Under the pieces are notes generated by a model. The model was not told the DNA's origin. It saw nothing but the letters and a program-made list of their open reading frames with translations, and did no database searches. Positions 5,670 to 5,784 of a stretch of 64,000 nt of DNA are shown here, one piece after another. Source of the stretch: Escherichia coli (GTDB lineage: Bacteria; Pseudomonadota; Gammaproteobacteria; Enterobacterales; Enterobacteriaceae); assembly GCF_003334765.1 (NCBI RefSeq), contig NZ_QOWT01000010.1; one strand, written 5' to 3'. The translations under genes were made by a program, and so were the position numbers. Within the stretch, counting starts at the first letter, position 1. The number at the start of each line of letters is the position of its first letter.

Positions 5670-5692
5670 GAATGAGAATGATTATTATTGTC
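5670..5692 (+). promoter_or_regulatory. Fur box overlapping the ryhB promoter
   Basis: GAATGAGAATGATTATTATTGTC immediately upstream of the RyhB 5' end, resembling the GATAATGATAATCATTATC Fur consensus; a TTGGAC -35-like hexamer lies just upstream. Confidence 0.75.
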
Positions 5693-5694
5693 TC

Positions 5695-5784
5695 GCGATC
5701 AGGAAGACCCTCGCGGAGAACCTGAAAGCACGACATTGCTCACATTGCTTCCAGTATTACTTAGCCAGCCGGGTGCTGGCTTTT
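5695..5784 (+). ncRNA. ryhB: Iron-responsive small RNA RyhB
   Basis: Sequence GCGATCAGGAAGACCCTCGCGGAGAACCTGAAAGCACGACATTGCTCACATTGCTTCCAGTATTACTTAGCCAGCCGGGTGCTGGCTTTT matches the RyhB sequence as I recall it, including the terminator hairpin (AGCCAGC...GCTGGCT) and T-run; it lies between yhhY and yhhX. Confidence 0.95.

Follow-up and report, generated by a model that had tools for sequence, protein, structure and literature searches.

The locus at 5670-5784 of the window, by which we mean the whole 64-kb stretch of Escherichia coli DNA analysed here, is practically certain to be the canonical and already known E. coli ryhB gene, with its Fur-repressed promoter and its terminator intact, and no evidence contradicting this assignment was found. 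An earlier reading of the letters without database searches (the sequence-only reading) had claimed an intact RyhB at this place and had proposed an Rfam scan as a check. Both the scan and a comparison with the reference gene bear the claim out. The RyhB covariance model (RF00057) matched positions 5724-5788 of the plus strand with 83.1 bits against a gathering score of 55 (E = 3.6e-14), the match covered the full model (1-67) and was not truncated, and the gene is identical at 95 of 95 nucleotides to b4451 of E. coli K-12 MG1655. In the 64-kb window, no Rfam family besides RyhB scored above its gathering score, and a single RyhB copy was found. The MG1655 annotation places ryhB between yhhX and yhhY, and the promoter, the Fur box, the terminator and both flanking genes are all the same here; no difference from MG1655 lies inside the ryhB locus, the differences outside it being the absence of IS1E from yrhA and one SNP at 7014. 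The interval given by the sequence-only reading starts just ahead of the Fur box and ends at 5784, which is the 3' end of the classical 90-nt RNA.

The structure of the RNA was judged by the covariance model and its whole-RNA minimum-energy fold was set aside. That fold was no better than those of shuffled sequences (z = -0.59), which is no argument against membership in the RyhB family because the covariance model, which evaluates structure and sequence together, scored far above its threshold. The PGAP-annotated RefSeq E. coli records that were listed carry no feature under ryhB (window positions 5655-5795), and the curated MG1655 record annotates an ncRNA there; the absent PGAP annotation is a pipeline gap, and neither a sign of novelty nor evidence against the gene.

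A promoter scan of positions 5000-6500 returned the ryhB promoter as the sole promoter-like site, with the transcription start at G5695, 7 nt downstream of the -10 hexamer (coordinates of all features are collected in Table 1). The whole 64-kb window was searched for Fur sites with the consensus GATAATGATAATCATTATC, allowing up to three mismatches; a single match was obtained, against 0.01 expected by chance. This site, GAGAATGATTATTATTGTC, agrees with the consensus at 16 of 19 positions and lies over the -10 hexamer of a promoter agreeing at 10 of 12 positions, as expected from the Fur-box-containing promoter of the sequence-only reading. In an alignment of 29 species the Fur box block GAATGAKAATGATTATTATTG is kept from Escherichia to Yersinia, Serratia and Pantoea, and the regions of the -35 and -10 hexamers are conserved in approximately 29 species as well. 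The Fur site of the E. coli K-12 ryhB promoter was given 25.2 bits by an information-theory model, and its binding was confirmed by gel shift (PMC2189734). The A/T-rich palindrome TTTTTTTGCAAAAA upstream of the -35 hexamer is conserved as (T)nGCAAAAA in Escherichia, Citrobacter, Enterobacter and related genera, thus in many Enterobacteriaceae, and may represent an UP-like element or an element shared by the divergent yhhY and ryhB promoters. Other iron-related genes are carried by the window, namely feoABC (feoA at about 46320-46550, minus strand) and nfuA (about 40510-41090, minus strand), as projected from MG1655 coordinates; since ryhB alone has a match with at most three mismatches, a Fur site ahead of feoA, if one exists, must deviate further from the consensus.

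Within the RNA, nucleotides 38-46 (5732-5740, GACAUUGCU) are a perfect 9-nt complement to positions -4 to +5 of sodB (AGCAAUGUC) in MG1655, and this is the known RyhB pairing across the sodB start codon. It was identified by an exact-complement search, which took the place of RNAduplex; the latter, run with full-length RyhB against the sodB leader, gave an end-to-end duplex equalled by 30 of 500 shuffles. The intrinsic terminator that had been read from the letters was also recovered, as a 7-bp hairpin followed by T9 (stem 5763-5769/5775-5781, 5-nt loop CGGGU, -11.5 kcal/mol, z = -2.36), so that a run of at least seven U follows the stem. Published values for the ryhB terminator are -10.7 kcal/mol, U9 and about 20% read-through (PMC4509938). 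Across species, the terminator stem is invariant and its loop is variable.

For K-12 it is established that Fe2+-Fur represses ryhB, that Hfq stabilises the RNA through its U-rich 3' end and that the targets decay in an RNase E-dependent manner. Because the sequence is identical to K-12 ryhB, we infer that Fur repression in response to iron, Hfq dependence and RNase E-dependent target decay hold for the ryhB of the window in its source strain. When iron is sufficient, Fe2+-Fur bound to the operator at 5674-5692, which overlaps the -10 hexamer and nearly reaches the start, would exclude RNA polymerase; when iron is scarce, Fur would leave and the 90-nt RNA would be made from G5695. The transcript would end at the 7-bp hairpin and U9, the same 3' module binding Hfq, and the single-stranded core would pair with mRNAs for dispensable iron-containing proteins, for example at the sodB start codon. 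Such pairing would block translation and trigger RNase E-dependent decay, sparing iron for essential uses. A minority of polymerases would pass the terminator and run through the 116-nt spacer into yhhX, which would make yhhX weakly iron-responsive.

Table 1. Features at and around ryhB, in window coordinates; the last row gives the coordinates of two Enterobacter loci.
Feature	Coordinates	Strand	Description
AT-rich variable islet	2408-5084	-	yrhB, yrhD region, yrhA, yhhZ; between the ggt and yhhY stop codons
yrhB	2445-2729	-	islet gene
yrhD region		-	islet; listed between yrhB and yrhA
yrhA	3179-3673	-	intact 164-codon ORF overlapping the yhhZ stop; NCBIfam YrhA family NF038335
yhhZ, Hcp-HNH fusion	3670-4848	-	TIGR03344 Hcp, 118 bits; Pfam T6SS_HCP, 2.5e-11
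yhhY, GNAT N-acetyltransferase	5085-5573	-	NCBIfam NF007527, 373 bits; divergent from ryhB
A/T-rich palindrome TTTTTTTGCAAAAA	5641-5654	+	directly upstream of -35; read from the sequence
sigma-70 promoter of ryhB	5659-5688	+	-35 TGGACA 5659-5664, 18-nt spacer, -10 TATTAT 5683-5688; 10/12 positions
Fur box GAGAATGATTATTATTGTC	5674-5692	.	16/19 against consensus GATAATGATAATCATTATC; overlaps -10; ends 3 nt before the start
ryhB sRNA gene	5695-5789	+	95/95 identity to MG1655 b4451, exact string
90-nt RyhB RNA	5695-5784	+	MG1655 annotation with full U-tail reaches 5789
Conserved seed region CGACATTGCTCACATTGCTTCCAG	5731-5754	+	24-nt core
Rho-independent terminator / Hfq-binding 3' module	5763-5789	+	7-bp stem AGCCAGC/GCUGGCU, U9 tail
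ryhB-yhhX spacer	5790-5905	+	116 nt, no strong terminator
yhhX, Gfo/Idh/MocA-type oxidoreductase	5906-6943	+	NCBIfam NF007574, 779.8 bits; MG1655 annotation
Enterobacter bactofilin-domain gene, 226-229 aa	L014 3914-4603; L018 906-1586	- relative to ryhB	Pfam PF04519

Of 5426 complete E. coli genomes, 5425 contain the 341-bp region around ryhB, and the 141-bp unit formed by promoter and gene is at least 99% identical in 5367 of these 5425. In the engineered, genome-reduced strain DGF-298, the segment from yrhB through yhhW, ryhB included, has been deleted (PMC10652928). A scan for exact matches to the 24-nt core CGACATTGCTCACATTGCTTCCAG, with one genome per bacterial species, gave at least 120 loci in Enterobacterales, Vibrionaceae and Aeromonadaceae. 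Among the matches listed, many species have two core loci (e.g. L014/L075, L027/L028 and L031/L032), and the occurrence of two RyhB loci per species has been treated before (PMC3415461). Salinivibrio sharmensis carries two RyhB cores in tandem, 306 bp apart (L035, 11699-11722 and 12005-12028). The gene order ggt, yhhY, ryhB, yhhX, yhhW, gntR is conserved; yhhY adjoins ryhB in Escherichia, Citrobacter, Enterobacter, Yersinia, Serratia, Hafnia, Pantoea and Erwinia; in nearly all loci with yhhY, from Escherichia to Yersinia, Serratia and Pantoea, it is found about 640-670 nt upstream of the core. An alignment of 29 yhhY-linked loci shows conservation of the Fur box, the -35 region, the core and the stem of the terminator. 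Variation, including non-triplet indels, falls in the 5' stem-loop, the loop of the terminator and the two flanks of ryhB, as it should in an RNA gene that carries a protein-binding operator.

The 24-nt core is shared with the RyhB paralogues, namely RyhB-2/IsrE of Salmonella, ryhB-2 of Klebsiella and RyhB1/2 of Yersinia; unlike these, the window copy, the only one detected there by Rfam, is the orthologous, yhhY-linked ryhB. PrrF of Pseudomonas, a Fur-repressed iron-sparing sRNA which represses mRNAs for iron-containing proteins, follows the same regulatory logic as RyhB, but the locus is not a member of that family (RF00444; 21.3 bits against a gathering score of 90, E = 0.37).

Downstream of ryhB, on the same strand, yhhX starts 116 nt past the U-tail. 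The only terminator-like element of the spacer is a weak hairpin at 5812-5827 that lacks a proper T-run, and in the absence of a strong terminator the spacer is a route for read-through into yhhX. Earlier publications have suggested such read-through and demonstrated it in part (PMC4509938, PMC8896160). With the ryhB terminator on a plasmid, Morita et al. obtained about 20% read-through, the products no longer binding Hfq; in their words ryhB 'seems to be co-transcribed' with yhhX, which by their own account was 'not shown experimentally' (PMC4509938). Iron limitation raises yhhX mRNA in the wild type, an effect that a ryhB deletion including the promoter abolishes (Bar et al., PMC8896160). 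As discussed in PMC2189734, the Fur site had been isolated as 'yhhX' by Vassinova and Kozyrev.

With two co-directional genes 116 nt apart and the weak hairpin alone between them, the measured read-through and the loss of the yhhX response along with the ryhB promoter could be taken further, to a purposeful two-output, iron-induced operon of the sgrS-setA kind whose leaky terminator is tuned to deliver both the sRNA and YhhX. This reading extends the canonical explanation of ryhB and does not replace it, and we regard it as possible, though doubtful. Like sgrS-setA, ryhB-yhhX consists of an Hfq-binding sRNA with a U-rich terminator followed by a same-strand protein gene, no strong terminator intervenes, and read-through has been measured for both terminators (PMC4509938). 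Unlike that of sgrS-setA, the co-transcription of ryhB and yhhX has been inferred from RNA-seq and FURTA data, and conservation of the arrangement does not extend beyond Escherichia, Citrobacter and close relatives. A bactofilin-domain gene convergent to ryhB (Pfam PF04519, 1.4e-19) stands between ryhB and yhhX in Enterobacter, and the same has been reported for Klebsiella (PMC3423075). Yersinia, Serratia and Pantoea have no yhhX at the corresponding place, and elsewhere the spacer differs in length, being about 120 nt longer in E. albertii than in E. coli and 39-290 nt in other genera. Given the variable spacer, the bactofilin gene and the missing yhhX, co-transcription would occur at most in Escherichia and close relatives, and from these comparisons it appears unlikely as a conserved design. 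Two further points speak against tuning for joint output: Fe depletion makes the ryhB terminator work more efficiently (PMC4509938), where a design for co-induction would need the reverse, and folding of the read-through spacer is predicted to leave the yhhX Shine-Dalgarno sequence paired.

When E. coli is compared with E. albertii or Enterobacter, homology ends right after the ryhB terminator and resumes about 60 bp before yhhX. As judged from these alignments, the DNA varying directly beside ryhB is thus that of its 3' side, the ryhB-yhhX spacer, and not that of the islet side. By eye, the extra spacer sequence is REP-like in E. albertii and in a second Escherichia genome outside the main E. 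coli cluster (L094). The bactofilin gene is absent from E. coli; in Enterobacter only a few bases separate its stop codon from the ryhB terminator, and this terminator probably serves both ryhB and the bactofilin gene. The encoded protein shows, by eye, a hydrophobic N-terminal stretch and looks membrane-anchored.

The spacer itself folds at -35.4 kcal/mol (z = -3.96), none of 200 shuffles being as stable. Hairpins are predicted at 5813-5847 and 5870-5891, together with a long-range stem in which nucleotides just past the ryhB terminator (about 5795-5802) pair with the yhhX ribosome-binding site (about 5895-5902). Other species do not preserve this long-range stem, and within E. coli the variant L125 breaks one of its pairs. 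The hairpin preceding the yhhX Shine-Dalgarno sequence changes on both sides in other genera, by eye (GGTG/CACC versus GGTTA/TAACC). A permissive Rfam scan of 5400-6100 gave RyhB and a sub-threshold PrrF match only, with no family in the spacer. The predicted anti-Shine-Dalgarno pairing is consequently best kept as a low-probability lead, and it seems improbable that in E. coli, which is without the bactofilin gene, ryhB and yhhX make up a new iron-induced unit whose spacer stem would render the yhhX RNA translationally silent or conditional.

On the other side of ryhB, an AT-rich islet fills the interval between ggt and yhhY. It had been described in the sequence-only reading as an acquired, variable toxin islet immediately adjacent to ryhB, within about 600 bp, which would make ryhB a junction with variable DNA. 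Its acquired and variable nature is supported by a GC content of about 0.31 (between roughly 2500 and 5100), by its Hcp-HNH content, by its absence from E. albertii and other genera and by the four states described below. Some islet sequence is present in 4506 of 5426 complete E. coli genomes, and a query made of the islet and its flanks was matched over at least 80% in 3760 of the 5426. At least four states of the ggt/yhhY interval occur in E. coli: the full islet, yrhB alone (E22), a DUF4225 gene (O157:H7) and an empty 58-bp spacer (HD12481). In E. albertii, Enterobacter, Citrobacter, Pseudescherichia, Phytobacter and others, the islet is absent and ggt directly abuts yhhY; it follows that the islet originated in the E. 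coli lineage, where it occupies the gap between two genes that converge.

Like the Hcp-HNH effectors of the Hcp-ET1 type, YhhZ combines an N-terminal Hcp domain with a C-terminal HNH/His-Me finger, the Pfam match of the latter being weak (E = 0.013). Hcp-ET1 is a T6SS-delivered HNH DNase (PMC6730261) and YhhZ has been classed as an Hcp1-family HNH/His-Me finger protein (PMC5714182), and on domain content the label of toxin islet appears reasonable. No Pfam match was obtained for YrhA, and a PADLOC scan of YhhZ, YrhA and YrhB gave no match to a defence system. The 768-bp IS1E carried by yrhA in MG1655 is missing here (777 bp fewer including the target duplication, with the insertion point near 3281-3292), and yrhA is therefore an intact ORF in the window; wild strains, 582 among them, match the yrhA region in one piece at 100%. 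Apart from the absent IS1E, the first 12 kb of the window are 100% identical to the K-12 strains ER1709 and J53. The comparison with MG1655 gave two mismatches in 7.4 kb; position 7014, in the yhhX-yhhW intergenic region, is A in the window and G in MG1655. The remaining 50 kb differ from MG1655 by six mismatches and one gap.

The distance of about 600 bp was correct, the islet edge (5084/5085) being 610 bp from the ryhB start; adjacency in the strict sense was not, since a complete yhhY lies between. The islet ends at the ggt and yhhY stop codons, and with yhhY standing between the two, linked to ryhB as far as Yersinia and Erwinia, ryhB is not a junction element. Read-through or antisense transcription across yhhY and yhhZ had also been put forward as a way in which islet and ryhB could influence each other. 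Apart from the short distance, this idea can draw on promoter-like sites within the AT-rich islet, a constitutive-promoter screen listing the yhhZ-yrhA and yrhD regions (PMC3946193). The orientation of the genes nevertheless makes it very improbable: ryhB, on the plus strand, is divergent from yhhY and yhhZ on the minus strand and is transcribed away from both, so that its read-through can enter only yhhX, while the islet genes are transcribed toward ggt and away from ryhB. No plus-strand promoter-like site was detected in 5000-5658 at the threshold of the scan. Representatives of the four islet states do not differ by a single base in ryhB or in the yhhY-ryhB intergenic region, and a complete, conserved yhhY separates the islet from ryhB. 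The islet is an independent, E. coli-specific acquisition with no evident mechanistic link to ryhB.

Genes for tRNAs, tmRNA and some sRNAs serve as attachment sites of genomic islands, and an sRNA gene less than 1 kb from horizontally acquired DNA raises the idea that ryhB was the anchor for integration of the islet. Boundary mapping refutes this and leaves it next to no probability. Against an empty-site genome, homology stops at 2407 (the ggt stop codon) and restarts at 5085/5086 (the yhhY stop codon), so the boundaries are those two stop codons, and none falls at the 3' end of ryhB; the islet lies on the 5' side of ryhB, past yhhY. No integrase gene was found among the islet ORFs (2408-5084), and a search for flanking direct or inverted repeats gave only short AT-rich chance matches.

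Hardly any weight can be given to a protein-coding reading of the region, for which the six-frame ORF list offers two mechanical plus-strand ORFs, 5596-5883 (95 aa) and 5688-5849 (53 aa): both traverse the promoter and the intrinsic terminator, the invariance of Fur box, core and terminator stem across species fits an RNA with its promoter, and indels of 1, 2 and many nucleotides between species, in the stretch from start to core and after the terminator, break any reading frame, so that the overlapping ORFs are excluded as genes.

RyhB is among the best-studied bacterial small RNAs and the copy described here is identical to the reference, so that the locus has little discovery value. What the analysis changes is the view of its surroundings. 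The variable islet is not attached to ryhB and fills the convergent ggt/yhhY spacer, and gene orientation rules out effects of ryhB transcription on yhhY or yhhZ. Read-through into yhhX is the only plausible effect on a neighbour, and the literature so far documents it indirectly. A small comparative addition is that the DNA which varies next to ryhB is found on its 3' side, in the spacer that leads to yhhX.
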